From: a virus
Length of the DNA: 64,000 bases
IMG/VR virus record: IMGVR_UViG_3300021429_002604
Location: 32,001 to 96,000 of that record
Reading direction: 5' to 3' (one strand)
Shown piece after piece: positions 1,932-30,221 of this stretch (its first letter is position 1; the number at the start of each line of letters is the position of its first letter). The notes beneath the pieces were generated by a model. The model had not been told where the DNA came from, did no database searches, and worked only from the letters and a program-made list of their open reading frames with translations. Made by a program: the position numbers and the translations under genes.

Positions 1932-3554
1932 ATGGCAGGATTTTTAGATTATTTAAAACCCAATCAATCTGCTCTAGGTAACATTCTAAAAAACCTAGGC
2001 AACATATCAAAATTTGGTATGCAGTATGATGATATGGTTGTGAGAAATTCTCAAGCCATTGGTAAGACTGAGGGATATTTTTTCAATCAGGACGGTACTG
2101 GTTTCACCCAAAATGATGCCTTTTATTGGACTGCTTCGTATCAGGACACTAAGGTAAGAAAATATATCGCTTACTTTGATAGGGATTATATCGAGAAAAG
2201 AAATTACCTTAGAAAATTTTCTCTTAACGGAGAGATTGAATTTATTATCGATACAGTTACCGATGAGTCAATAACTTATGATGATAGAAACTACTTCGCA
2301 CAACCATCTTTTATAAATCTGGATCTTAAGGATAAGATTAAAGATGAGATGTCAACCAATTATAATAGGCTCTATAACGTATTCGGATTTCAGAATAGTG
2401 TACTAGCTTGGCAGTACTTTAAGCAATTCTTGATTGATGGATTTCTAGCTTTTGAAATTATCTATGATAACAAGGGTAAGGAAGTTATAGGATTTAAGGA
2501 ATTAGACCCATCATCTCTTCAGCCCGTTGTTGAAAAAGTCGGTGAAAATGAATATAAACAATTCTGGATCCAGTACCCGCAGAATCCTCAAATGAGCAGG
2601 AAGCTTACAAATGAGCAGGTTATTTATATTTCATATGCTAAGGGTAATAGCGTTTCTAGAGTTAGTTATATCGAAAGACTAGTTAGATCTTATAACATTT
2701 TAAGAATCATGGAAAATTCCAGAGTTATCTGGAATGTGATGAACGCTTCATATAGGCTTAAATTTATTATTCCGATTGGTAGTCAGTCACCTCAGAAAGC
2801 AATGCAAACACTCGGACAACTGATGTCGAATTACAAGGAGGATATTTCAATCAATGATGCTTCGGGTGAATTAACAATTAACGGTAGACCGAAGGTTCAA
2901 TTTTATAAAAATTACCTGTTTCCTGAAAAGGATGGGCAATCACCAACTATCGAGTCTCTAAACCCAAGCGGTCCTGATTTTAATGTTATGGAGAATGTTT
3001 TATACTTCTTTAATAAACTTAAGATGGATTCAAAAATTCCTTATGCTAGATTTGCTTCCAAAAACGGAACACCAGCAAACTATCAGATTTCTATAGATCA
3101 GTTAGAAAGGGACGAAATTAGATTTGAAAAGTTCCTTAGAAGGCTAAGATCGATATTCCAAGAAATACTCGTTAAACCACTTTATTTACAAATGTGTCTG
3201 GATCATCCGGAGCTATCTAGAGATAAAAGCTTTAAAGCAAATATCGGACTTAATTACTATCGTGATAGCGAATTTGAGGAGATGGTGGAGATGTCGGGCT
3301 TTACAAAAAGAAGCGAATTCATAAAAGGACTAGGCGAACTTAAAGTAAAAGCTGGCGAGGAAGAAAAAGCATATTTTGATAACGACTTCCTAATACAGAG
3401 ATATCTGGGTATGAATCCTGATCAGATTAAAATGAATCAGAAGTACAAGGAAAAAGAAGCTAAAGCAGCAGAGAAAACTAAAGGCGGAGCGGAAGGTGAA
3501 GCCGGCGGAGAGGAAGCAGCAGGAGAAGAGGAAGCACCAGCAGTAACATTATAA
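1932..3554 (+). CDS. gp20: Portal vertex protein, T4 gp20-like (paralogue 2)
   Basis: 540 aa, colinear with paralogue 1 (e.g. YISYAKGN..SR.SYIERL.R.YNILRIME; DEIRFEKFLRRLRSIFQEI). Confidence 0.9.
   Translation: MAGFLDYLKPNQSALGNILKNLGNISKFGMQYDDMVVRNSQAIGKTEGYFFNQDGTGFTQNDAFYWTASYQDTKVRKYIAYFDRDYIEKRNYLRKFSLNGEIEFIIDTVTDESITYDDRNYFAQPSFINLDLKDKIKDEMSTNYNRLYNVFGFQNSVLAWQYFKQFLIDGFLAFEIIYDNKGKEVIGFKELDPSSLQPVVEKVGENEYKQFWIQYPQNPQMSRKLTNEQVIYISYAKGNSVSRVSYIERLVRSYNILRIMENSRVIWNVMNASYRLKFIIPIGSQSPQKAMQTLGQLMSNYKEDISINDASGELTINGRPKVQFYKNYLFPEKDGQSPTIESLNPSGPDFNVMENVLYFFNKLKMDSKIPYARFASKNGTPANYQISIDQLERDEIRFEKFLRRLRSIFQEILVKPLYLQMCLDHPELSRDKSFKANIGLNYYRDSEFEEMVEMSGFTKRSEFIKGLGELKVKAGEEEKAYFDNDFLIQRYLGMNPDQIKMNQKYKEKEAKAAEKTKGGAEGEAGGEEAAGEEEAPAVTL
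3525..3554 (+). repeat. 30-bp direct repeat copy 2 (encodes EEEAPAVTL-stop)
   Basis: gaagaggaagcaccagcagtaacattataa. Confidence 0.95.
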
Positions 3555-3573
3555 ACCCTTTAAATTCCTAATA

Positions 3574-4551
3574 ATGGAATTGGATCTACTTAAAAAATTT
3601 TCTCGCAGTAAAATATTAATCGTCGGGGATGTTATGCTGGACCATTATGTGATGGGTTCAGTGACAAGAATTTCTCCGGAAGCACCAGTTCCTGTTCTTC
3701 TGAAAGAATCTGAACATTATTATCTGGGTGGAGCAGGAAATGTTTTTTCCAATATACATTCATTGGGTGGTAATGGTGATATTCTAACCGTTACTGGAAA
3801 TGATTCAAACGGAGACCTAGTAAAAAACATGATAAAGGAAAAATCCTCCCTAAGTATCCTAGTTAAAACCGACAAGAGAAGAACCACTATTAAATCAAGA
3901 TATCTTGGAAATTCGCATCAGCTTCTCAGAGTTGATGACGAAGATTGTGATGATATCGACAAGGAGACAGAGGATTATTTTATAGATCTGCTTGAATCTA
4001 CTATTGAATTTTATGAGTGCGTTATTATCGAAGATTATAATAAAGGATTAATGACTCCCAGAATTATAAGAAGAACGATAGAACTTTGCAATGCTAAAAA
4101 CAAACCAGTTATAGTTGATCCCAAAGTAAAGAATATAGATTTTTATAAAGGATGCACCGTACTTAAACCGAACTTCTCCGAATTTTGCACTATTGCGGGA
4201 AAGAAAATGTCTGCATCTGATTTTGATCAAATAACGGAGGAAGCCAGAAAAATTCTGGACAGTATGGAAATAAAGGGTATTCTGGTGACTCTTTCTGATA
4301 AGGGCATGCTATATGTTACCCGATACGAATCTTATCACAGCCCAGGGTATCCAATAAACGTTTCTGATGTTTCCGGTGCCGGTGACACAGTAACAGCTAT
4401 GTTCTCTCTTTGTATATCATCTGGAGTTGATATCAAAAAGGCATTAAAGCTATGTAACATAGCAGGATCTATTGCCTGCTCACTAGTTGGAGCTGTCTCA
4501 GTTAGTCTTAACGAGATCACGGAGAGCAAATATTTCAGATCTAACCCATAG
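3574..4551 (+). CDS. hldE: D-glycero-beta-D-manno-heptose-7-phosphate kinase (HldE/RfaE domain I, PfkB family)
   Basis: GDVMLDHY..G...RISPEAPVPV, GGAGNV, EDYNKG, VDPK, KPNFSE and VSDVSGAGDTV. Confidence 0.9.
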   Translation: MELDLLKKFSRSKILIVGDVMLDHYVMGSVTRISPEAPVPVLLKESEHYYLGGAGNVFSNIHSLGGNGDILTVTGNDSNGDLVKNMIKEKSSLSILVKTDKRRTTIKSRYLGNSHQLLRVDDEDCDDIDKETEDYFIDLLESTIEFYECVIIEDYNKGLMTPRIIRRTIELCNAKNKPVIVDPKVKNIDFYKGCTVLKPNFSEFCTIAGKKMSASDFDQITEEARKILDSMEIKGILVTLSDKGMLYVTRYESYHSPGYPINVSDVSGAGDTVTAMFSLCISSGVDIKKALKLCNIAGSIACSLVGAVSVSLNEITESKYFRSNP

Positions 4552-4579
4552 AATATTTTTTTTAGCCGAAATCCTTGTC

Positions 4580-4587
4580 TATATTTG
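4580..4587 (+). promoter_or_regulatory. Bacteroidota sigmaA-type -7 element TAnnTTTG
   Basis: TATATTTG in the intergenic gap, 18 nt before the ligase ATG. Confidence 0.6.
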
Positions 4588-4605
4588 TGAAAATTAAAAA
4601 CAAAT

Positions 4606-5937
4606 ATGATACAGGAATTAAGACTATTTAAGACATTAGAAAATCTAACTGGAGAAGGATCACAGAAAGCCAAACAGATCATCATAGGCGATAATCTGAG
4701 TGATAGGTTCTCTTATATGTTGGATATTTGCTATAACCCATTCGTTACAACAAAACTTCATAAGATCTCTTTTAACGAGGCTTTATCTGACGCTAATCAT
4801 AATCATTGGGAAGATTTTAAAAAGCTAATAGAGGAGCTTAAAACGGCTCCTGCAGCAAACGATTTACTAAGAGGGAGAGCTCAGGATTTGGTTTCTCAAA
4901 AAATATCAGAAGACCCGCAGGAAGATCTTGAACTCAGAACAGTTCTTATGAAAATTCTAACCAAAAGAATGAATATTGGGATTGGAGCCAAGCTAATTAA
5001 CAAGGCGGTTAAAAAAGAACTTATTCCGGATCCATCACTCATGTTAGCAACAGACGATCACGAAACCATAGAAAAATGGGACAAAATATACTGTGAGGAG
5101 AAATATGATGGTGTCAGAGTTATTGCACTTTACAAGAATGGGGAATTCTCATATTTCACCAGGGCGTTTAACGAATTAGACTCGAGTTGCTTTCCTAAGA
5201 TTACTTTTGATCTTAAAACATGCCTTATAAACAGCGGATTAAAAGGCGATTGGTTTTTCGACGGTGAATTAACGGACCTCAATAGAAAATCAGTAAGTGG
5301 TAAAGTTACCCAGATATTGAGAGGAAAGGTTGATTCATCAATAGAGTCCGGTTTATTATTCAATGTGTTTGATTTTGAAGAGGCTTCATCACTAGAGAAA
5401 GGCTCCGGTGTTATAGATTACAAAACACGTAGAGACACTTTGGAAAAGATACTTCGTTATATCGGTTCCGATTCCCCAGTAAAACTGGCACAAATGTGGG
5501 AGCTTAGTGATCCTAGCGAGGTAACGGCTATTTATAAGAAAATAGTTGATTTAGGAGGTGAGGGCGTTATTTGCAAGGATAACGGAGTATATGAATGTAA
5601 AAGATCTAAATCTTGGGTTAAATTTAAAGAGGTTAGTGATTGCGATCTTGAAATAACTGGTTGGTATCCAGGAGAGGGCAAGAGGGAAGGATTTATCGGA
5701 GGATTCATTTTGACCGATAGCTCAAGAACACTAAATGTTAAGGTTGGAGCAGGATTTACTGATAATGATCTAAAGGCACTAAGCCAAGATCCCGACTCGC
5801 ATATCGGAAAAATTGCTGCTATCCAATATAACGTGACTATCACGGACAAGCACGGAAATAGATCTTTATTTCTTCCACGTTTCATAGAGGTCAGAAGTGA
5901 TAAAAATTCACCTGACGATTTTTCGGGAAAATTTTAA
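4606..5937 (+). CDS. gp30: ATP-dependent DNA ligase (T4 gp30-like)
   Basis: EEKYDGVR adenylation motif, FFDGEL, EGVICK, WVKFK and an OB-fold ending in SLFLPRF. Confidence 0.95.
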   Translation: MIQELRLFKTLENLTGEGSQKAKQIIIGDNLSDRFSYMLDICYNPFVTTKLHKISFNEALSDANHNHWEDFKKLIEELKTAPAANDLLRGRAQDLVSQKISEDPQEDLELRTVLMKILTKRMNIGIGAKLINKAVKKELIPDPSLMLATDDHETIEKWDKIYCEEKYDGVRVIALYKNGEFSYFTRAFNELDSSCFPKITFDLKTCLINSGLKGDWFFDGELTDLNRKSVSGKVTQILRGKVDSSIESGLLFNVFDFEEASSLEKGSGVIDYKTRRDTLEKILRYIGSDSPVKLAQMWELSDPSEVTAIYKKIVDLGGEGVICKDNGVYECKRSKSWVKFKEVSDCDLEITGWYPGEGKREGFIGGFILTDSSRTLNVKVGAGFTDNDLKALSQDPDSHIGKIAAIQYNVTITDKHGNRSLFLPRFIEVRSDKNSPDDFSGKF

Positions 5938-5965
5938 GAAACAAGCTTCTAATTAACAACTAAAA
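5938..5965 (+). promoter_or_regulatory. Bipartite promoter motif GAAAC-N17-CTAAAA
   Basis: Lies just upstream of the clamp loader; the same spacing occurs at five other sites. Confidence 0.55.
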
Positions 5966-5970
5966 AGAAT

Positions 5971-6915
5971 ATGATACAAGAATTATTAACAGAGAAACTT
6001 AGACCAAAAGAGCTAAGACATATGATTCTCCCTCAGAGAATCTCTAAGATATTTGAGAATGGATTAAATCAGAACGTTCTTTTAAGCGGTCCTCCAGGAT
6101 GTGGAAAAACAACTTTAGCAAAAATTTTAGCTGCTCCGTATCCGCATATTTTTATAAACGGATCCGATGAAAGCTCGGTTGAAACTATCAGAGTCAAGAT
6201 AAATGATTTCTGTTCAACTATATCAGTCCTAGATGGTAGATCGTCTAAGAAGGTTGTTATATTGGATGAGTTTGACGGGGTATCAGATCAGTTTCACAAA
6301 GCCCTCCGCGGAACTATTGAGAAGTTTGCTAGCAATACAAGATTCGTTGCAACCTGCAACTATATAAATAAGATTCCCGATGCAATCCAGAGTAGATTTG
6401 AGGTTATTGATTTTAATCCAGTTAGCAACGACGAGGAGGAATCATTAAAAGCAGAATGGAACAAGAGGGTAAGCCTTATATTATCAAAGCTTAATATCTC
6501 GATCGATGCAGATTCTCTATTGGAGTTCCAAAAGAACTACTACCCAGATTTCAGATCGGCATTGAATAAGATCCAAAGTTGGAACATCGAGAATGTGACC
6601 GTGGTGGATTCTAAAAAAATGCAGGAGCTTGGATGGTCTTATGAATCTTTATATGATCTAATAGTAACATCTAAAGACCCGGTTAAAAATTATCAAACAA
6701 TAGTTGGTGAATATCAAGGTAAGGTTGATGATGTGATGTCTGCCCTTGGCGAGGAGTTTATTAAATGGATAATTGATAACAAACCAGAATTAAGAAAAAT
6801 AATCCCTGGTGTTATCATCCTTGTTGCAGATCACCAATCACAAAGAAACCAGGTGATTGACCCTATGGTTTCTCTTCTATCACTTGTTTATCAAATACAG
6901 AAATTAGTAGAATAG
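5971..6915 (+). CDS. gp44: Clamp loader AAA+ subunit (T4 gp44 / RFC small subunit-like)
   Basis: EKLRP, Walker A GPPGCGKT, Walker B ILDEFD, TCNY and IQSRF. Confidence 0.92.
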   Translation: MIQELLTEKLRPKELRHMILPQRISKIFENGLNQNVLLSGPPGCGKTTLAKILAAPYPHIFINGSDESSVETIRVKINDFCSTISVLDGRSSKKVVILDEFDGVSDQFHKALRGTIEKFASNTRFVATCNYINKIPDAIQSRFEVIDFNPVSNDEEESLKAEWNKRVSLILSKLNISIDADSLLEFQKNYYPDFRSALNKIQSWNIENVTVVDSKKMQELGWSYESLYDLIVTSKDPVKNYQTIVGEYQGKVDDVMSALGEEFIKWIIDNKPELRKIIPGVIILVADHQSQRNQVIDPMVSLLSLVYQIQKLVE

Positions 6916-7446
6916 ATGAGAAGAGTAATATTAGTTGGTAAGGGTGGTTCAGGAAAAGATCACGCAAGAAAGCTTTTAGAAGATAGAGGATTTAGATATT
7001 GCGTTTCACACACGACAAGGCCTCCTAGAGAGGGTGAGATACAGGGAAAAGATTATCATTTTATAAGCAGAGATGCTGCTGCCCACGATTTTGAAGCGAA
7101 GGGACTTTTCTATGAATATGTTATATTTAATGGATGGGTATACGGAACCACGAAGGAGGAGTTCGTAAAATCAAATCTATTTATAATGACACCATCAGGG
7201 ATAGCTAAACTCCTTCCTGAAGATAGAAAAGAATCATTAATAGTTTATTTAGATATAGACGAAGAAACAAGAAGACTGAGACTTTTAGGCCGGAGAGATG
7301 CTGATAGCGTGGAGAGAAGATTAAAAGCTGACGACGACGATTTTGAAAACTTTAAAGATTTTGACCATAGAATAGTAGACCCTGAATTCTCAATTGATGA
7401 GGAATGGGCTTCGGTTGAGAATTATAAAACGGAACAATTAAAATAA
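6916..7446 (+). CDS. gmk: Guanylate kinase
   Basis: GKGGSGKD P-loop, VSHTTRPPREGE..GKDYHF and YGT. Confidence 0.9.
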   Translation: MRRVILVGKGGSGKDHARKLLEDRGFRYCVSHTTRPPREGEIQGKDYHFISRDAAAHDFEAKGLFYEYVIFNGWVYGTTKEEFVKSNLFIMTPSGIAKLLPEDRKESLIVYLDIDEETRRLRLLGRRDADSVERRLKADDDDFENFKDFDHRIVDPEFSIDEEWASVENYKTEQLK

Positions 7447-7449
7447 AAT

Positions 7450-8598
7450 ATGGTTAATATACTGATAGACGGAAATTACATCTTTCATAAAACATTCGGA
7501 ATATTCGGCGGTTACGGAAATGTCGATCCAGGTAAGATACTTAAGGATAAATCTGAACAAGCAGCTTTTATTAGAAAAGTATCAACTGATCTCTGTTCTT
7601 CCCTAAAGATGATACCTCAGGGTGGTAGATTAGTTTTCACCGCAGATAGCAGAAGTTGGAGAAAGGATATTGAAATAGAGGACGGTGGTTATAAATCAGG
7701 AAGAGTTAAGGACGAAGCCGTTGACTGGACTATCTTTTTTGAACTTATGCAATCATTTGGTTCTCATCTCGAAAAGATGGGATTTATTTTTTCTAAGGTC
7801 GAAGGAGCTGAAGGTGATGATCTTCTAATGTTTTGGTCGGATCACTTTAATAGCAAAAAAGAAAATTGTATAATCATAACGGGTGATAAAGATCTACATC
7901 AGTTAGCAAAAATATCTGGAGGTTCATGGACTGCCATATGGAATAATAATTCGAAGAAGAATACCATATCTGTTCCGAGAGGATGGAAAGAATCATGGCT
8001 TGATAAGAACGAGTCAGTTAACATTTTTAATATGGCTTCAACAATCTCTCCCGAGAAGGAAAGATTTAAAGACTTCCTAAAGAAGGTTCAAATCGAAGAA
8101 ATTGAGAGCAGACCTTTTATATTCAATAAGATACTCATTGGCGATAAAGGTGATTCTGTTCCCGGTGTATTCACTTACATGCAAAACAATAAACCAGTCA
8201 ATTTTACGCAGAAGAAATCTGATACCGTATACGAAGCATTTTTAGAATCTGAATGGTGTGACGAATCTTTCGGAACACTAGTCAACTCATCGGAAAGTGA
8301 AGAATTTCTAAACTGGTTAAGTGGATTAGTAATTAGAACATCTAAGGGTGTTGATAGCTCCGAGAATAGAATTAAGGTAAAATCTAATATAATTAGAAAC
8401 TTTAAGCTCATGTGGTTAAATTCATCAATGATACCCGATTTTGTTACTAATGGATGTATGGATGAAATATCAAGAGGTATTTCGCTAGAAAAAAGATCGG
8501 TAACTCTAGATAGAATTAAAATATTAGAAGGAACCGAATGGGTTACCTCCGGATATCAACCTAGGGGATTCGATCCTTTTGAACATCTTATAAAATAA
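7450..8598 (+). CDS. rnh: 5'-3' exonuclease / T4 RNase H-like (FEN family)
   Basis: LIDGNY, EGAEGDD, IITGDKDLHQL and GDKGDSVPGV. Confidence 0.88.
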   Translation: MVNILIDGNYIFHKTFGIFGGYGNVDPGKILKDKSEQAAFIRKVSTDLCSSLKMIPQGGRLVFTADSRSWRKDIEIEDGGYKSGRVKDEAVDWTIFFELMQSFGSHLEKMGFIFSKVEGAEGDDLLMFWSDHFNSKKENCIIITGDKDLHQLAKISGGSWTAIWNNNSKKNTISVPRGWKESWLDKNESVNIFNMASTISPEKERFKDFLKKVQIEEIESRPFIFNKILIGDKGDSVPGVFTYMQNNKPVNFTQKKSDTVYEAFLESEWCDESFGTLVNSSESEEFLNWLSGLVIRTSKGVDSSENRIKVKSNIIRNFKLMWLNSSMIPDFVTNGCMDEISRGISLEKRSVTLDRIKILEGTEWVTSGYQPRGFDPFEHLIK

Positions 8599-15318: not shown

Positions 15319-15326
15319 GATATATA
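15319..15326 (+). promoter_or_regulatory. GATATATA putative late promoter preceded by a 7-bp hairpin (15301..15318)
   Basis: aatactg-aaac-cagtatt then gatatata, 25 nt before the protease ATG. Confidence 0.6.
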
Positions 15327-15351: not shown

Positions 15352-17301
15352 ATGCCAACAACTCAAAAATTGAACGAAGATTTGGTCTTTATCCTCGAAA
15401 GACAAAGTACAGTCCTTGAATCTAAAAAAACAGATTCGGATGATTATGTCTTAGAAGGTACTGCTGCTGTGTTTGGAAAAGAGAACAACAACAACAGAAT
15501 ATATGAAGAGGCCGAATATCTTCCACACCTAAACTACCTTAAGGACAAAATAGCTCAAAAGAGGTTGGTTGGTGAATTGGATCACCCTGAGAAATTCGAT
15601 GTTTCTTTGAAAAACATTTCACACATCATCACTGATCTTAATCACGATAAAGCTAACAGAGAGATTAAGATTAAGGTAAGACTTTTAGATACCCCAGCAG
15701 GACAAATCGCTAAAAAGCTAGTAGATGCTGGAGTACCACTTTCAATATCATCAAGAGCAGCTGGTGCAGTTGGTAATGATAAGAAAGTACAAATCAAGAA
15801 AATATTCACTTACGATTTAGTTGCCGATCCAGGATTTCAGGACGCACAATTAGAAAGAGTATACGAAAGCGCAGGCTATACATTTCAAGAATTCTTTGAA
15901 ATGAGAAATAACAGCGTTTTATCCGATCTAGTTTGTATGAATGAATCATTAGGTCTAGAAAATGAATCTACAGTGAAGATATATAAAGTTGAAAATAACG
16001 AAGAATTCAACAAACTCGTATCAAAATCAGACAAAAATAAAACAATCCTCATGGAGAATAATGAATTTGTTACTGCGGAAGAACTTAATCAATATTCAAT
16101 TTTCTTGAAAAAGGAAATGGATTCGATGAAGTCTACATTGGCAGAAATTAAAGAACAAAAAGAAAAATTAAGCGAATCCGCTGAAGAGTCTAACACTTCA
16201 GACTTGGAAGAGAGAGTAGCAAAACTTGAAAAGTACTCTGAGTATTTAGCTGAGAATTTGGACAGTGCTATTAAATACGGTGAGTATTTAGCAGAGAATC
16301 TAGATTCAAGCATCAGCTACACTAAATACTTGGCTGAGAATTTGGACAAGAACATCTCTTACTCTAAGTATTTAGCAGAAAACGTAGACAAATCAATTTC
16401 TTACTCTGAGTATGTTGCAGAGAGCGTTGATAAATCTATCGAGTATTCTAAATATCTTGCTGAGAAGGTAGATCAAAATATCCAATATTCTGAGTACTTA
16501 GCAGAAAACGTAGACAAAGGTATTGCTTATAGCGAATATCTAGGTGAGAACCTTGACAAAGGTATTGCTTACACTGAATACGTTGCTGAGAAACTAAATA
16601 ATGGTATTGAATACTCTGAGTATCTAGGTGAGAATCTAAACAAATCAATTGAGTACTCTGATTATTTAGCAGAGAACGTTAACAGAGGTTTAGATTATTC
16701 TGAGTACTTAGCAGAAAAAGTTAAAAGATCAATCTCTTATAGTGAATATATTGCTGAAAACGTTAATAACGGAACAATGAATAAAACAGAATCACTAAGA
16801 GAAAGCGTAGATCTTTCAGCTCAAGCAGGTTTAAATGAATCTGGATTTGCTGGAGATTACACTAATCTTTCATCACAAATTGATAATTTGATAGAATCAG
16901 TTAAAACACAAAAAACTGAGTCAAATATAAACGAAGCTTCTAGAAACGTAGAAGCACCAGCCGACACACAAAAGGCAGAAACTCTTAACGAAGAGGAGAA
17001 CACCAACAAAACAGGTCTTAAGTTTATCGATGAGATGCCTGAAGAATACACTCAGGTTTGGGAATCACTTACAGAAAGTCACCAGCAATCTATTGTTGCT
17101 CAAAGTAACTTCTATAGGTTAGATACACCTTACCAGATTAAAAACTTCTGGTCAACACGTCAACTTGGAACTAAAACAGTTGGGGTTCAAAAACTAGACG
17201 AGAGTGAAAACGTAGCTCAAACAAATGCAAACCAGGCTTATTCAAGTGATTACATGAATTACATAGCTTCTGCATTAGAGCAAAAATTCGCAAGAAGATA
17301 A
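15352..17301 (+). CDS. gp21: Prohead protease (gp21-like) fused to prohead core scaffold (gp22-like)
   Basis: N-terminal LEG..AVF...N.NNRIY, GELDHP (His), ISSRAAG (Ser) and DLVADP; the C-terminal half is a coiled-coil repeat scaffold. Confidence 0.9.
   Translation: MPTTQKLNEDLVFILERQSTVLESKKTDSDDYVLEGTAAVFGKENNNNRIYEEAEYLPHLNYLKDKIAQKRLVGELDHPEKFDVSLKNISHIITDLNHDKANREIKIKVRLLDTPAGQIAKKLVDAGVPLSISSRAAGAVGNDKKVQIKKIFTYDLVADPGFQDAQLERVYESAGYTFQEFFEMRNNSVLSDLVCMNESLGLENESTVKIYKVENNEEFNKLVSKSDKNKTILMENNEFVTAEELNQYSIFLKKEMDSMKSTLAEIKEQKEKLSESAEESNTSDLEERVAKLEKYSEYLAENLDSAIKYGEYLAENLDSSISYTKYLAENLDKNISYSKYLAENVDKSISYSEYVAESVDKSIEYSKYLAEKVDQNIQYSEYLAENVDKGIAYSEYLGENLDKGIAYTEYVAEKLNNGIEYSEYLGENLNKSIEYSDYLAENVNRGLDYSEYLAEKVKRSISYSEYIAENVNNGTMNKTESLRESVDLSAQAGLNESGFAGDYTNLSSQIDNLIESVKTQKTESNINEASRNVEAPADTQKAETLNEEENTNKTGLKFIDEMPEEYTQVWESLTESHQQSIVAQSNFYRLDTPYQIKNFWSTRQLGTKTVGVQKLDESENVAQTNANQAYSSDYMNYIASALEQKFARR
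15978..15985 (+). promoter_or_regulatory. Internal GATATATA putative late promoter for a nested scaffold ORF
   Basis: 65 nt upstream of in-frame ATG 16051, which has an A-rich leader. Confidence 0.5.
16051..17301 (+). CDS. Putative nested, in-frame scaffold protein (416 aa) translated from Met234
   Basis: In-frame ATG at the protease/scaffold boundary with leader acaaaaataaaacaatcctc, plus the upstream late motif. Confidence 0.5.
   Translation: MENNEFVTAEELNQYSIFLKKEMDSMKSTLAEIKEQKEKLSESAEESNTSDLEERVAKLEKYSEYLAENLDSAIKYGEYLAENLDSSISYTKYLAENLDKNISYSKYLAENVDKSISYSEYVAESVDKSIEYSKYLAEKVDQNIQYSEYLAENVDKGIAYSEYLGENLDKGIAYTEYVAEKLNNGIEYSEYLGENLNKSIEYSDYLAENVNRGLDYSEYLAEKVKRSISYSEYIAENVNNGTMNKTESLRESVDLSAQAGLNESGFAGDYTNLSSQIDNLIESVKTQKTESNINEASRNVEAPADTQKAETLNEEENTNKTGLKFIDEMPEEYTQVWESLTESHQQSIVAQSNFYRLDTPYQIKNFWSTRQLGTKTVGVQKLDESENVAQTNANQAYSSDYMNYIASALEQKFARR
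16234..16773 (+). repeat. 13 tandem 42-bp (14-aa) coding repeats, consensus YSEYLAENLDKxIx
   Basis: Units counted in the translation from YSEYLAENLDSAIK to YSEYIAENVNNG (last unit 12 aa). Confidence 0.95.
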
Positions 17302-17330: not shown

Positions 17331-19052
17331 ATGAAATTGATTAACGAACAAGAAATCTATGATACCTGGTCTCCGATTATCGAGAGCAAAGCAGGGATCA
17401 CTGATTCAAGCAAAAAAGAGTGGTTGACTAAATACTGTCACTACCATTCATTAAACGAAAGTGCCGGAGCGTATAACTCATTAGGAGTTGTAAACGGTAT
17501 GGGTGCAGTAGCTCCGCCATTATACCCTGGAATGAGTGCATTCACAGGTACAGCTAACGCTGGTTTCTACAACAGCACAAACCAAGGTTCAGGAGATAAA
17601 TTCCCTTCATTGTTACCATTAGCTATTCAGGTAGCTGCTAAAACAATCGGATTTGATATCGTTCCTGTTATCCCTATGTCTGGTCCAACTGGTATCTTGT
17701 CTTACTTAGACTACGTATACGCAGGTGGTAAATTAGCTGGTACAACTGGTGCTGATGCTTCAGGTGCTGATGCTTTAGCTAAAGCTCCTGCATTGATTAA
17801 ATTCCCAGTTTACCAAGGTTCATCTGCAGGTGCAACTGGTGCTACAGCTGGAACATTCACAGTAGGTACTGGTTATACAGTTACTTCTGCTGCTGGTGGT
17901 GTATTAACATTAAAATTCGTGGGTCTATCAAGAATTGATGGTTTCCCAATCTTCGAAGTTGAAGGTGTTACTGCAAACTACACTGTTGCATCTATCATCA
18001 ACGGTACTTCTGTACAAGTTGCTACTGCTACTGGTATGTACACTGGTACTTCTTCATCATCTAACGGTTATGTTGCTCAATTAGTTAAAGCTTTAGAAGA
18101 TCACATCCAAGGATTCTCTGGTGCTGGTTTCAACAACACCAACGATTGGCAAGGTCCTTACGTTGATGGTACTAAAACTTACAACCCAATGTTAAGAGGT
18201 GTTGCTGAGTCTACTTACTACAACTCAATGGGTCTTTCTACTTTCACTAAGTTCGTAGAAGCTGAGACTTTCCAAGTTGCTGCTTCAGTTACAACTGAGC
18301 AAATTCAAGACCTTAACAAACAATTCGGTATCGACGTTATCTCAATGATCGAGAACGCATTGGTTAATGAGGTTTCTCAAGCAATTAACAAGCACATCCT
18401 TTCAAGAGCATTCGCTTTAGGTTGGTCTAACCACATTCAGTTCAACAATGTTGAAAACCAAAACTTGAACTTGAACCTAATCCTTAGCGGTGCTGCTGGT
18501 ACTACATCAAACTACGTTAACAAATCTGATGTTAATGTAACTATGGCATTGCCTGCAGGTCCTGCATCAACTTCTTACGAGAACTTGTCAACTTTACAAA
18601 GAAGACTATTCTCTAGAATTCTTGCAGCTGCAAACGTAGTAGCTAACAGAGGTAGAAGAGGTCCTGCTAACTTCATCGTAACAAACGCTGCAGTTGCAAG
18701 TGCACTTCAAGACATCTCTCAGTTCACTTTCGCTCCATTCTCTAACACGTTGACTCAAAACAACGGTACTTTATACCCTGTAGGTTCGCTTGCTGGTATG
18801 ACAGTTTACGTTGATCAAAACATGAGCTACAGCGATACAAGAGTATTGGTTGGTAGAAAAGGTGGTGATGACGAACCAGGACTTAAATTCATGCCTTACA
18901 TGATGGCTGAGTCTATTCAGACAATCTCTGAAGGTACAATGTCACCTAAGATCGCAGTTAAATCTAGATACGCTCTAGTTGAAGCTGGTATGTTACCTGA
19001 AACAATGTACTTAACATTCTATGTTAACGTGCCTTCAGGTGGTTTAGCATAA
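17331..19052 (+). CDS. gp23: Major capsid protein (T4 gp23-like)
   Basis: WSPIIE, DIVPVIPMSGPTG, RRGPANFIV, MPY and PKIAVKSRYAL; strongly biased codon usage. Confidence 0.95.
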   Translation: MKLINEQEIYDTWSPIIESKAGITDSSKKEWLTKYCHYHSLNESAGAYNSLGVVNGMGAVAPPLYPGMSAFTGTANAGFYNSTNQGSGDKFPSLLPLAIQVAAKTIGFDIVPVIPMSGPTGILSYLDYVYAGGKLAGTTGADASGADALAKAPALIKFPVYQGSSAGATGATAGTFTVGTGYTVTSAAGGVLTLKFVGLSRIDGFPIFEVEGVTANYTVASIINGTSVQVATATGMYTGTSSSSNGYVAQLVKALEDHIQGFSGAGFNNTNDWQGPYVDGTKTYNPMLRGVAESTYYNSMGLSTFTKFVEAETFQVAASVTTEQIQDLNKQFGIDVISMIENALVNEVSQAINKHILSRAFALGWSNHIQFNNVENQNLNLNLILSGAAGTTSNYVNKSDVNVTMALPAGPASTSYENLSTLQRRLFSRILAAANVVANRGRRGPANFIVTNAAVASALQDISQFTFAPFSNTLTQNNGTLYPVGSLAGMTVYVDQNMSYSDTRVLVGRKGGDDEPGLKFMPYMMAESIQTISEGTMSPKIAVKSRYALVEAGMLPETMYLTFYVNVPSGGLA

Positions 19053-19071: not shown

Positions 19072-19105
19072 AGAAACCCTAGGATTTATCCTAGGGTTTC
19101 TTTTT
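19072..19105 (+). terminator. Rho-independent terminator after the major capsid gene
   Basis: 13-bp stem agaaaccctagga/tcctagggtttct, loop ttta, then a T-run. Confidence 0.9.
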
Positions 19106-19113
19106 GTGTGTGG

Positions 19114-19121
19114 GATATATA
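19114..19121 (+). promoter_or_regulatory. GATATATA putative late promoter
   Basis: Lies between the terminator and ORF 19148. Confidence 0.65.
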
Positions 19122-29515: not shown

Positions 29516-29543
29516 GAAACAATCCACTTTAAAAAATGTAAAA
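29516..29543 (+). promoter_or_regulatory. Bipartite promoter motif GAAAC-N17-GTAAAA
   Basis: Directly upstream of ORF 29553. Confidence 0.55.
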
Positions 29544-29552
29544 TATATAAAG

Positions 29553-30221
29553 ATGCGTGATCTGATTGCTCTTTTATTTGGTAAAAACAAAAAAAGTAAA
29601 AAAATGGATATAACAGAAAAGAATCTGGATGAAGCTAGAGCTATGTATGCAGGTATGGACTTTCAATGGATTAAGGGTGACGATGCCCTTTCTATCGAGA
29701 CCTTTAAATCGATGAGTTTAAATGGTGAGACTGCCTTTATAGAATTCACTAGCGGGAAGAGAATCAACCTTGATCTCTTGGAGGAGTTCATGACATATTT
29801 CCCCTCACAACCCAAAGCTCCCGCACCGGTAGCAATTGAAACTGTGACCCATCAGGAGCCAAGAGTTTCCAGAGTTACTGAAGTTGTTTATCAGGATCAT
29901 TCATCGGGAATGGCTGATGTTGACTCACCGATATATAAGCTACTAAGAAAGCAAAAGAAGAACATCGTGGAAGTTTCGATTAAGATGAAGCTTAATCTTC
30001 CTCCCAAGGAACTTTATGGGGTTCTTTCCACTTCTTTCGAGGATGCCGATAATGAGATTATAAATTTTGTTTTGGATGGTGTTGACATTGACGATATTAA
30101 AGCGTCACTGGCAGAGTCCATTAAAAAATCATACTACTCAATCGGTAGCAAACAGGAACTAGAAAAAACTGTAAGCACTAAATCAAACAGAAAAAATTCT
30201 ACAAGTAGCCATGAAGAATAA
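29553..30221 (+). CDS. Hypothetical protein
   Basis: 222-aa ORF; the true start may be the second Met (MDITEK). Confidence 0.7.
   Translation: MRDLIALLFGKNKKSKKMDITEKNLDEARAMYAGMDFQWIKGDDALSIETFKSMSLNGETAFIEFTSGKRINLDLLEEFMTYFPSQPKAPAPVAIETVTHQEPRVSRVTEVVYQDHSSGMADVDSPIYKLLRKQKKNIVEVSIKMKLNLPPKELYGVLSTSFEDADNEIINFVLDGVDIDDIKASLAESIKKSYYSIGSKQELEKTVSTKSNRKNSTSSHEE

Follow-up and report, generated by a model that had tools for sequence, protein, structure and literature searches.

In the 64-kb stretch of viral DNA analysed here (the window), which is the structural-gene region of a huge uncultured freshwater phage, one gene probably gives rise to two proteins. The open reading frame (ORF) at 15352..17301 encodes, in a single chain of 649 amino acids (aa), a gp21-type prohead protease fused to a scaffold. 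Comparison of this gene with its homologues points to a second product, a free scaffold nested in the first, which would be expressed from a promoter embedded in the protease-coding part and from an internal start codon at Met234. An earlier note on this DNA, made from the letters of the sequence, had proposed that the phage makes its scaffold from a nested start in the manner of herpesviruses and phage lambda. Conservation of both the Met and the promoter-like motif supports that proposal in a comparative sense, with the internal promoter restricted to certain clades. The window has a G+C content of 37% and nearly all of its genes lie on the + strand, as do the parts of the fusion and capsid genes described below.

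Domain architecture of the fusion gene

A scan of IMG/VR revealed 582 loci that encode relatives of this gene, and the best 80 of these 582 were fetched (L008–L087). All of the complete loci among the 80 encode fusions, with lengths of 560–830 aa, and the same is true of the LR7565xx genomes and of Lak-A1. The alignment used throughout comprises 86 sequences, with homologues at 35–99% identity. In a quick IQ-TREE tree, the window's own clade, consisting of 13 loci with 53–99% protein identity, is monophyletic with 99% support. A second group referred to below, the Mahaphage-like clade, consists of L002, L003, L005 and about 25 IMG/VR loci. The closest published relatives are the metagenomic phage genomes LR756500-04 and LR745206 (462–735 kb); the Lak megaphages of Prevotella are more distant. 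Two IMG/VR records, 3300024348_000043 and 3300017917_003822, are relatives of the contig at 93–99%.

The protease domain occupies 15352..15990 (aa 1 to ~213). It matches the Pfam family Peptidase_S77 (PF03420) over aa 59–144, with a score of 29 bits against a cut-off of 27, and the head maturation protease family PHROG 207 over aa 19–174 (E 6e-38). An AlphaFold2 model of the 649-aa fusion, for which 71 homologues served as input, is confident over aa 10–158, with predicted local distance difference test (pLDDT) values of 70–87 over aa 30–158. Comparison of this model with the PDB using Foldseek gave T4 gp21 as the best match (5JBL chains A–C; E 2e-8, probability 1.00, target template modelling score 0.68), followed by weak matches to the herpesvirus proteases of pseudorabies virus, human cytomegalovirus and varicella-zoster virus. 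When a family profile of 71 homologues was searched against all PDB sequences, 5jbl was again found, as the sole match (E 3e-4). His78, in the motif GELDHP, and Ser133/Ser134, in SSRAAG, are invariant in 86/86 sequences. In an alignment with the 5JBL chain, His78 falls opposite the Ala of GELNAP, which is presumably the mutated catalytic His of the inactive crystallised enzyme. The domain ends with a conserved strand, V-K-I-Y-K-V, which the model places at aa 208–213. The reading of the gene as a gp21-like protease of about 233 residues fused to a scaffold, put forward in the earlier note, is thus one on which the ORF, Pfam S77, PHROG 207 and the 5JBL fold agree. The order of the parts, protease at the N-terminus and scaffold at the C-terminus in one reading frame, is shared by more than 80 homologues.

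Beyond aa 213, the model consists of a short helix, a low-confidence linker (aa 225–241) and helices spanning aa 242–275 and 283–472, the second of these being modelled at low confidence. This second helix contains 13 tandem 14-residue repeats (16234..16758, aa 295–469; consensus YSEYLAENLDKSIx), predicted to form a single long helix, and each of the repeats carries a T4-type L/I/V-x-E cleavage motif. In total, aa 234–649 hold 23 L/I-x-E sites, compared with 7.9 ± 2.5 in shuffled sequences, a threefold enrichment; the 3–4 such sites in the protease part are at chance level. A C-terminal helical domain (17020..17154, aa 557–601; MPEEY..W..L....FW.TR; pLDDT 74–79) is likely to be the capsid- or core-binding end of the scaffold, and Phe599, Trp600 and Arg603 are invariant near the C-terminus. 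Homology of this part to known scaffolds was considered and rejected, since aa 234–649 gave zero Pfam or PHROG family matches and BLASTP against the gp22-like scaffold of a T4-like cyanophage gave at best an insignificant E of 0.029 over 46 residues. It is the position of aa 234–649, their helical-repeat architecture and their load of cleavage motifs that suggest a scaffold.

A late-type, promoter-like box inside the protease-coding region

The octamer GATATATA occurs 13 times in the window, every time on the + strand, compared with 5.3 copies expected over both strands. The shorter core ATATATA is biased in the same direction, with 18 copies on the + strand and two on the − strand. Non-coding DNA contains 11 of the 13 octamers. 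Ten of these lie 26–73 nucleotides (nt) before the start of an ORF, and the other falls in a gap at 11.8–12.7 kb. The full-length protease–scaffold gene is preceded by one such box at 15319..15326, 33 nt before its ATG at 15352. This placement recurs in the relatives: at each of about 85 homologous loci, (G/A/T)ATATATA is present 25–45 nt before the start of the protease–scaffold gene, and the 8.4 kb upstream of the gene starts (100 nt from each of 84 genes) contains 42 copies of GATATATA and 76 of [AG]ATATATA. Judged by its position and strand bias, the octamer behaves like a single-box promoter of the T4 late type.

A further copy lies within the protease-coding region, at 15978..15985, where it is spelled by the codons aaG ATA TAT Aaa for K209-I210-Y211-K212. 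The earlier note had drawn attention to an exact motif at 15978 inside the coding sequence, as is indeed found, and had warned that it might be there by chance. The warning was apt. On the + strand alone, some 2–3 copies are expected by chance, so the intragenic copy by itself proves nothing and conservation tests are needed. A chance occurrence could not be rejected from the window alone; it was rejected after the conservation tests described below, which were positive.

The only other intragenic GATATATA in the window is at 29930, inside the ORF 29553/29604..30221, and once more it is written in Ile-Tyr codons (CCG ATA TAT AAG, encoding P-I-Y-K). This box is kept at synonymous sites in all three of the relatives found (L090–L092, 53–72% identity). 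The first ATG that follows it, at 29985, is in frame and is not conserved, the corresponding residues being M, M, I and L. The box at 29930 is probably an internal promoter of the downstream genes, from 30211 onward, rather than the marker of a nested protein. On this comparative evidence, embedded boxes are a recurring and selected feature of the phage, seen twice in the window.

The same ORF probably begins at ATG 29604 rather than at 29553. The context of ATG 29604 scores 8.2 bits, the best of all 1127 'internal' ATGs under the start-context model described below; a AATATATA box at 29542–29549, with its ATATATA core starting at 29543, lies just 10 nt before 29553; and the proteins of the relatives begin at a homologous MEIT….

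Selection on the internal box

In the window clade, the internal box takes the form xAG ATA TAT ARA, encoding K/Q-I-Y-K/R, and is invariant in 13/13 loci, at identities as low as 53%. Codon bias was considered as an explanation for this invariance and rejected: ATA and AAG are minority codons, accounting for 24% of Ile and 35% of Lys codons, respectively (TAT makes up 64% of Tyr codons and CAG 27% of Gln codons). The alignment has 230 columns in which a degenerate amino acid is invariant; in only 12 of them is the codon invariant too, and I210 and Y211 are two of the 12. Synonymous identity was scanned in sliding 9-codon windows, 640 in all, using only pairs of sequences below 90% identity. 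The highest value in the whole gene is found over aa 203–219, at 0.90 compared with 0.52 overall, and a second peak covers aa 224–232, the codons immediately before Met234. Conservation of the motif at synonymous sites had been put forward in the earlier note as a means of checking its proposal, and the outcome is an invariant box that coincides with the strongest constraint in the gene. The residue that follows Ile-Tyr is Glu or Asp (GAA, GAT) in the family and Lys or Arg (AAA, AGA) in the window clade, where it completes the octamer. Since Ile-Tyr is conserved as protein, only the synonymous sites argue for selection at the level of the DNA.

Boxes of a different placement occur in three relatives. 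In L022 (…NE-IY-TQ…) and in L023/L046 (…KP-IY-KV…), the conserved Ile-Tyr of the family is written ATT TAT or ATT TAC, and it is the codons of a second Ile-Tyr, within the hypervariable linker, that form GATATATA, 34 nt upstream of the same Met. This is the spacing seen at ordinary genes, and the position in the linker is not homologous to that of the box in the window. L023 and L046 are nested in a clade whose other members have no box, and L022 lies elsewhere in the tree. Over 84 genes, the 100-nt stretches that precede the Met (8.4 kb) contain 16 copies of the octamer and the other 159 kb of coding sequence contains none.

In the Mahaphage-like clade, GGATATATG, which has one mismatch to the box, lies exactly 45 nt before the Met. 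Synonymous identity over the corresponding aa 181–189 is 0.73, compared with 0.53, which ranks this 9-codon window fourth and makes the box region the second-best distinct region, after three overlapping windows at aa 539–549. We make no claim for a promoter signal here, as the split between AGG/ATA/TAT and AGA/ATY/TAY may follow phylogeny. Overall, the comparison indicates that only some clades have the internal promoter and that it has been placed at least three times.

Promoter-like boxes are also present in the scaffold repeats of several relatives. In the repeats of L009–L012, L057, L060, L063, L065 and L066, the residues E-Y-I (GAA TAT ATA) spell AATATATAG, the promoter consensus of the Mahaphage-like clade; examples are at gene offsets 1223, 1265 and 1307 of L057. 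Several relatives hold 1–3 such boxes inside their repeats, which may be active or may be tolerated noise.

Met234 as a probable internal start

The nested ORF, 16051..17301, is in frame with the full-length gene and runs from Met234; its product would be a protease-free scaffold of 416 aa beginning MENNEF. The presumed 5′ leader of the nested transcript, 15986..16050, is A-rich and free of ATG, and a search for RNA structure in it gave nothing beyond that of shuffled sequences (fold z-score 0.06).

Met234 is remarkably well kept for a residue in this part of the chain. The column holds Met in 84/86 homologues, and the other two have a Met 2–4 residues away. In the stretch that separates the protease domain from Y248, no other residue is highly conserved. 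Met234 directly follows a linker that is hypervariable in sequence and variable in length, and it falls within the predicted disordered linker of aa 225–241. A buried or catalytic role is therefore unlikely. Moreover, a Met that is always present, with some wobble in its position, is more readily understood as a start codon than as a structural residue. The earlier note had placed this in-frame ATG at the domain boundary, and the modelled linker does separate the protease from the long helices; conservation across the homologues, which the note had named as a check, is as just described.

The note had also likened the leader of this ATG to those of real starts. We examined this with a position-weight model of start context built from 49 gene starts of the window and covering positions −25 to +12. 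ATG 16051 scores 4.73 bits, compared with a leave-one-out median of 4.09 for real starts and −6.28 for internal ATGs, and it ranks seventh among 1127 internal ATGs; the likeness is thus borne out. For the 71 loci outside the window clade, the median score of the conserved Met is 4.33 bits, compared with −4.11 for the other 2876 ATGs. Within its own gene, the conserved Met outscores every other internal ATG in 36/71 loci and is among the top three in 50/71. In all 16 of the box-bearing loci, it is also the first ATG in any frame after the box, with 0.5–1.2 ATGs expected per locus. Taken comparatively, these features are those of an in-frame internal start at the protease/scaffold boundary, in a start-like context, and this internal start looks family-wide.

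The predicted N-terminus of the nested product, MENNEF, carries the signature [NDE][ED]F. This pattern was defined post hoc, with the data already in view; six of 49 window gene products have it among their first 12 residues (0.65 expected), as do 1.3% of interior 12-residue windows. N-termini of this kind, MENNEF included, resemble the N-terminal capsid-targeting sequences carried by the internal proteins of T4 (PMC9026906). The gene starts with the signature are 9598, 19148, 21188, 26131, 28468 and 40391, with N-termini such as MKNIPSFNEF and MRILKFNEF.

Two gene calls of 419 aa in the databases, P0066 and P0085, have exactly MENNEFVT as their N-terminus. Their contigs are 2.7 and 1.8 kb in length, and the calls may be contig-edge artefacts; they are not counted as evidence.

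The capsid gene and its missing promoter

The gene for the gp23-type major capsid protein (17331..19052; Pfam Gp23, E 9e-41) begins 29 nt after the fusion gene and has no box of its own. It is followed by a hairpin resembling an intrinsic terminator (19072..19101), with 13 pairs and a T-run, and the next GATATATA is at 19114. Throughout the window clade, the gap between the fusion and capsid genes is 11–30 nt and ATATATA is absent from it. In most other clades, the gap is 47–200 nt and has one ATATATA inside; the L024–L033 group has no exact box there. Because the capsid gene of the window clade lacks its own box, the nearest one upstream of this gene, which encodes the most abundant virion protein, is the box inside the protease gene. 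The internal promoter probably feeds the scaffold and capsid genes together in this clade.

A recurring block, for example …gttaagaagcaaaa… or …gacagaagcagaaagccc…, is present in the capsid-gene leader of L024–L033, L045, L062, L067 and L071–L087, flanked by complementary-looking bases, and is absent from the window clade with its gap of 11–30 nt. The block may be a conserved hairpin of the 5′ untranslated region or a regulatory site of the capsid mRNA. In the capsid protein itself, L/I-x-E motifs occur in the N-terminal region (17331–17460) at residues 4–6, 16–18 and 41–43 (…SLNE|SAG…), which suggests that a propeptide of about 43 residues is removed by the protease, as in T4 gp23.

Proposed expression scheme and alternatives

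In the scheme that we favour, the box at 15319 would give rise to an mRNA translated from ATG 15352 into the 649-aa protein, a gp21-type serine protease tethered to a helical scaffold. The tether would carry a few copies of the protease into the head core as the scaffold co-assembles. The box at 15978, within the K-I-Y-K codons, would give rise to a transcript whose first AUG is that of Met234 (16051), and hence to the 416-aa protease-free scaffold. The N-terminus of this nested product would begin MENNEFVTAEELNQ, and its N-terminal peptide would be MENNEFVTAEELNQYSIFLK, which is preceded by Leu in the fusion. The nested transcript would continue into the capsid gene and stop at the terminator near 19100, so as to be the equivalent of T4 genes 22 and 23. 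With scaffold and capsid protein expressed from two promoters and the protease from one, the ratio of protease to scaffold would be low. Once the head has assembled, the 23 L/I-x-E sites of the scaffold, of which 13 lie in the repeats, would be cleaved by the protease, and the resulting small peptides would exit the head.

Several points weigh against this scheme. The case is a comparative one, and the phage is uncultured. I210-Y211 belong to a conserved β-strand of the protease, so that the motif is in part kept for the sake of the protein. Most clades have no box, and the clades other than those discussed above show no synonymous constraint at the box site. In four loci (L037, L041, L043 and L055), both the internal box and the capsid-gene box are missing, so the complementarity between the two is imperfect. 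The A-rich, start-like context of Met234 could partly reflect a disordered linker rich in Lys and Asn in an AT-rich genome, and the [NDE][ED]F signature of its product is subject to the manner in which it was chosen. Finally, the box at 29930 is not accompanied by a conserved Met; a box alone is therefore no proof of a nested protein, and the nested-protein case for the protease gene rests on the evidence concerning the Met.

It is from this last point that the best-surviving alternative, though an unlikely one, draws strength. In this alternative, GATATATA at 15978 is a real promoter that merely boosts the capsid gene, Met234 is unused, the scaffold portion of the transcript acts as a leader that is translated incidentally or not at all, and any free scaffold comes from proteolysis of the fusion. 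It fits the absence of a capsid-gene box in exactly the clade with the internal box, and the conservation of the 29930 box where the in-frame Met downstream varies. Furthermore, L233-M234-E235 (16048–16056) conforms to the L/I-x-E cleavage motif in the window clade, as does I-M-E in LR756500, and proteolysis here, within two residues of the nested start, could yield a similar scaffold fragment in the absence of internal initiation. In the clades where the flanking L/I and E are missing, however, a cleavage site does not explain the Met. An unused Met is also hard to reconcile with its retention in 84/86 homologues, box-free clades included, with its start-like context across the family and its place as the first ATG after every box, and with the second peak of synonymous constraint on the nine codons that precede it. 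In L022, L023 and L046, moreover, the box is 34 nt from the Met yet more than 1.1 kb from the capsid gene.

Somewhat less probable still is that Met234 serves as a translational start on the full-length mRNA, as in lambda C/Nu3, with GATATATA constrained not as a promoter but, for example, because a protein binds there or because its particular codons make translation pause where the two domains meet. In favour of this explanation, the Met is retained in most clades in the absence of any box, and the promoter role of the octamer is deduced from position and strand bias only. Nevertheless, the octamer is identical to the box found 25–45 nt upstream of the relatives' gene starts and before other ORFs of the window, it occurs nowhere else in 159 kb of these genes, and its non-homologous placements before the same Met are hard to square with a codon-specific pause. 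The explanation in which there is no internal expression, Ile-Tyr being a protease strand, the Met a structural or cleavage residue and the nucleotide identity a matter of codon preference and ancestry, can draw on the 2–3 chance + strand copies expected in a 64-kb AT-rich window, on the retention of Ile-Tyr as protein throughout the family and on the sharing of codons by descent, but it is very improbable given the minority codons used (ATA 24%, AAG 35%), the saturation of the clade at other synonymous sites (0.52) alongside a box that is invariant and tops all 640 windows, the location of the Met in a disordered, hypervariable linker, and the independent placements of the box.

Internal expression of a free scaffold from the box and Met234 thus remains the explanation that we prefer. 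A wider proposal, which we hold about as likely to be right as wrong, is that a very large family of huge Bacteroidota phages fused the equivalents of T4 genes 21 and 22 and re-expresses the scaffold internally, from an ancestral start and from promoters gained at least three times, at differing positions upstream of that start, with re-tuning of the ratios. Such a family would take in hundreds of IMG/VR contigs, the 462–735 kb genomes of Al-Shayeb et al. and probably the Lak phages. If this is true, internal promoters are written as Ile-Tyr codons (xxG ATA TAT Axx), each gain re-tuning the balance of protease, scaffold and capsid protein, and in the window clade the internal promoter has replaced the capsid gene's own. 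It would also mean that tailed phages have converged on the transcription layout of herpesvirus UL26/UL26.5 and that late promoters are routinely hidden inside genes.

Relation to known systems

Setting the amount of protease relative to that of scaffold is a basic problem in the assembly of virus heads, solved in T4 by separate genes, in lambda by a nested translational start and in herpesviruses by a nested transcript. In the herpesvirus UL26/UL26.5 pair, a promoter inside the ORF yields about 10-fold more transcript for the scaffold, and the arrangement has been extended to the malacoherpesvirus OsHV-1 (PMC11565193). The phage gene is similar in that an N-terminal protease is fused in frame to a scaffold, a shorter in-frame, 3′-coterminal product free of the protease is predicted, and a conserved element that is a candidate promoter lies inside the protease-coding part. 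The rationale would be the same, few proteases being tethered to many scaffolds, and the proteases have a homologous fold, as the weak Foldseek matches indicate. Unlike the herpesviruses, the phage has a bacterial host and a single-box promoter of the phage type. Its scaffold consists of 14-residue repeats full of cleavage motifs, where that of herpesviruses has a single release site and a single maturation site; the capsid gene would also be carried on the nested transcript; and the system is known from sequence alone.

In lambda C/Nu3 and Mu I/Z, the scaffold is made from an in-frame translational start inside the protease gene. As in lambda, the scaffold proposed here would be encoded inside the gene for a tailed phage's head protease, sharing its reading frame and its C-terminus, and a family-wide Met with a start-like context fits a translational mode of this kind. 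By contrast, lambda C is a protease of another, ClpP/SppA-like type, and no separate promoter serves its nested start; the protease here is of the S77/gp21 type and some clades appear to add a promoter. Phage P2 gpO is likewise a protease–scaffold fusion, with an N-terminal protease and a C-terminal scaffolding domain in a single polypeptide. We know of no separate nested scaffold in P2, whereas a nested product is indicated here.

The order of the genes, protease–scaffold followed by gp23, is that of T4 genes 21, 22 and 23 and of a T4-like cyanophage, in which the three genes are separate. The protease (Pfam S77; 5JBL) and the capsid protein (Pfam Gp23) are homologous to those of T4. In T4, gp21 cleaves on the C-terminal side of the Glu in L/I-x-E and reduces the scaffold gp22 to small fragments (PMC9026906), and the scaffold part of the fusion resembles gp22 in being rich in these motifs. 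It differs in being joined to the protease and in having no sequence similarity detectable by BLASTP to a T4-like scaffold (best E 0.029, as above). T4 gene 21 does contain an internal start, Met45, which gives gp21s (Hintermann and Kuhn 1992, as cited in PMC9026906); as described there, this start is inside the protease domain and its product is a shortened protease rather than a scaffold.

Metatranscriptomes of related lake phages are presented in a paper on bS21-encoding phages, which does not report promoters or internal starts (PMC9723584). In a literature search that had most subscription journals outside its reach, we found no description of nested scaffolds for gp21-type proteases or for huge phages. 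The comparative evidence supports the conclusion that a known strategy, the nested scaffold, is newly indicated in a T4-type lineage of huge phages, some clades of which would resemble herpesviruses in placing a promoter inside the gene. There are two consequences for annotation. Metagenomic records label the gene 'hypothetical protein' or 'prohead protease', so that the main scaffold protein currently goes unannotated, and promoter scans limited to intergenic DNA would miss promoters embedded in coding sequence.

Related fusions in other phages

In the Prevotella phage Lak-B1 (L007, MK250020.1, ~3000–3900), the homologue is split into short ORFs under translation table 11. The fusion is intact in Lak-A1 (L006), at 584 aa, and the breakage in Lak-B1 is consistent with the use of alternative stop codons in some Lak phages.

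The cultured Flavobacterium phage MaF61 (L088, PQ858689.1) has, at 3378–7592, an ORF of 1404 aa annotated as 'putative prohead scaffold'. Whole-protein BLASTP involving this ORF gave nothing useful, and a published paper that mentions MaF61 contains neither virion proteomics nor scaffold data. The N-terminus of the 1404-aa protein nevertheless holds the gp21-type protease motifs GALDHD, SISARAIG and IFTYDIV, and MaF61 is a possible laboratory model for protease–scaffold fusions of this kind.

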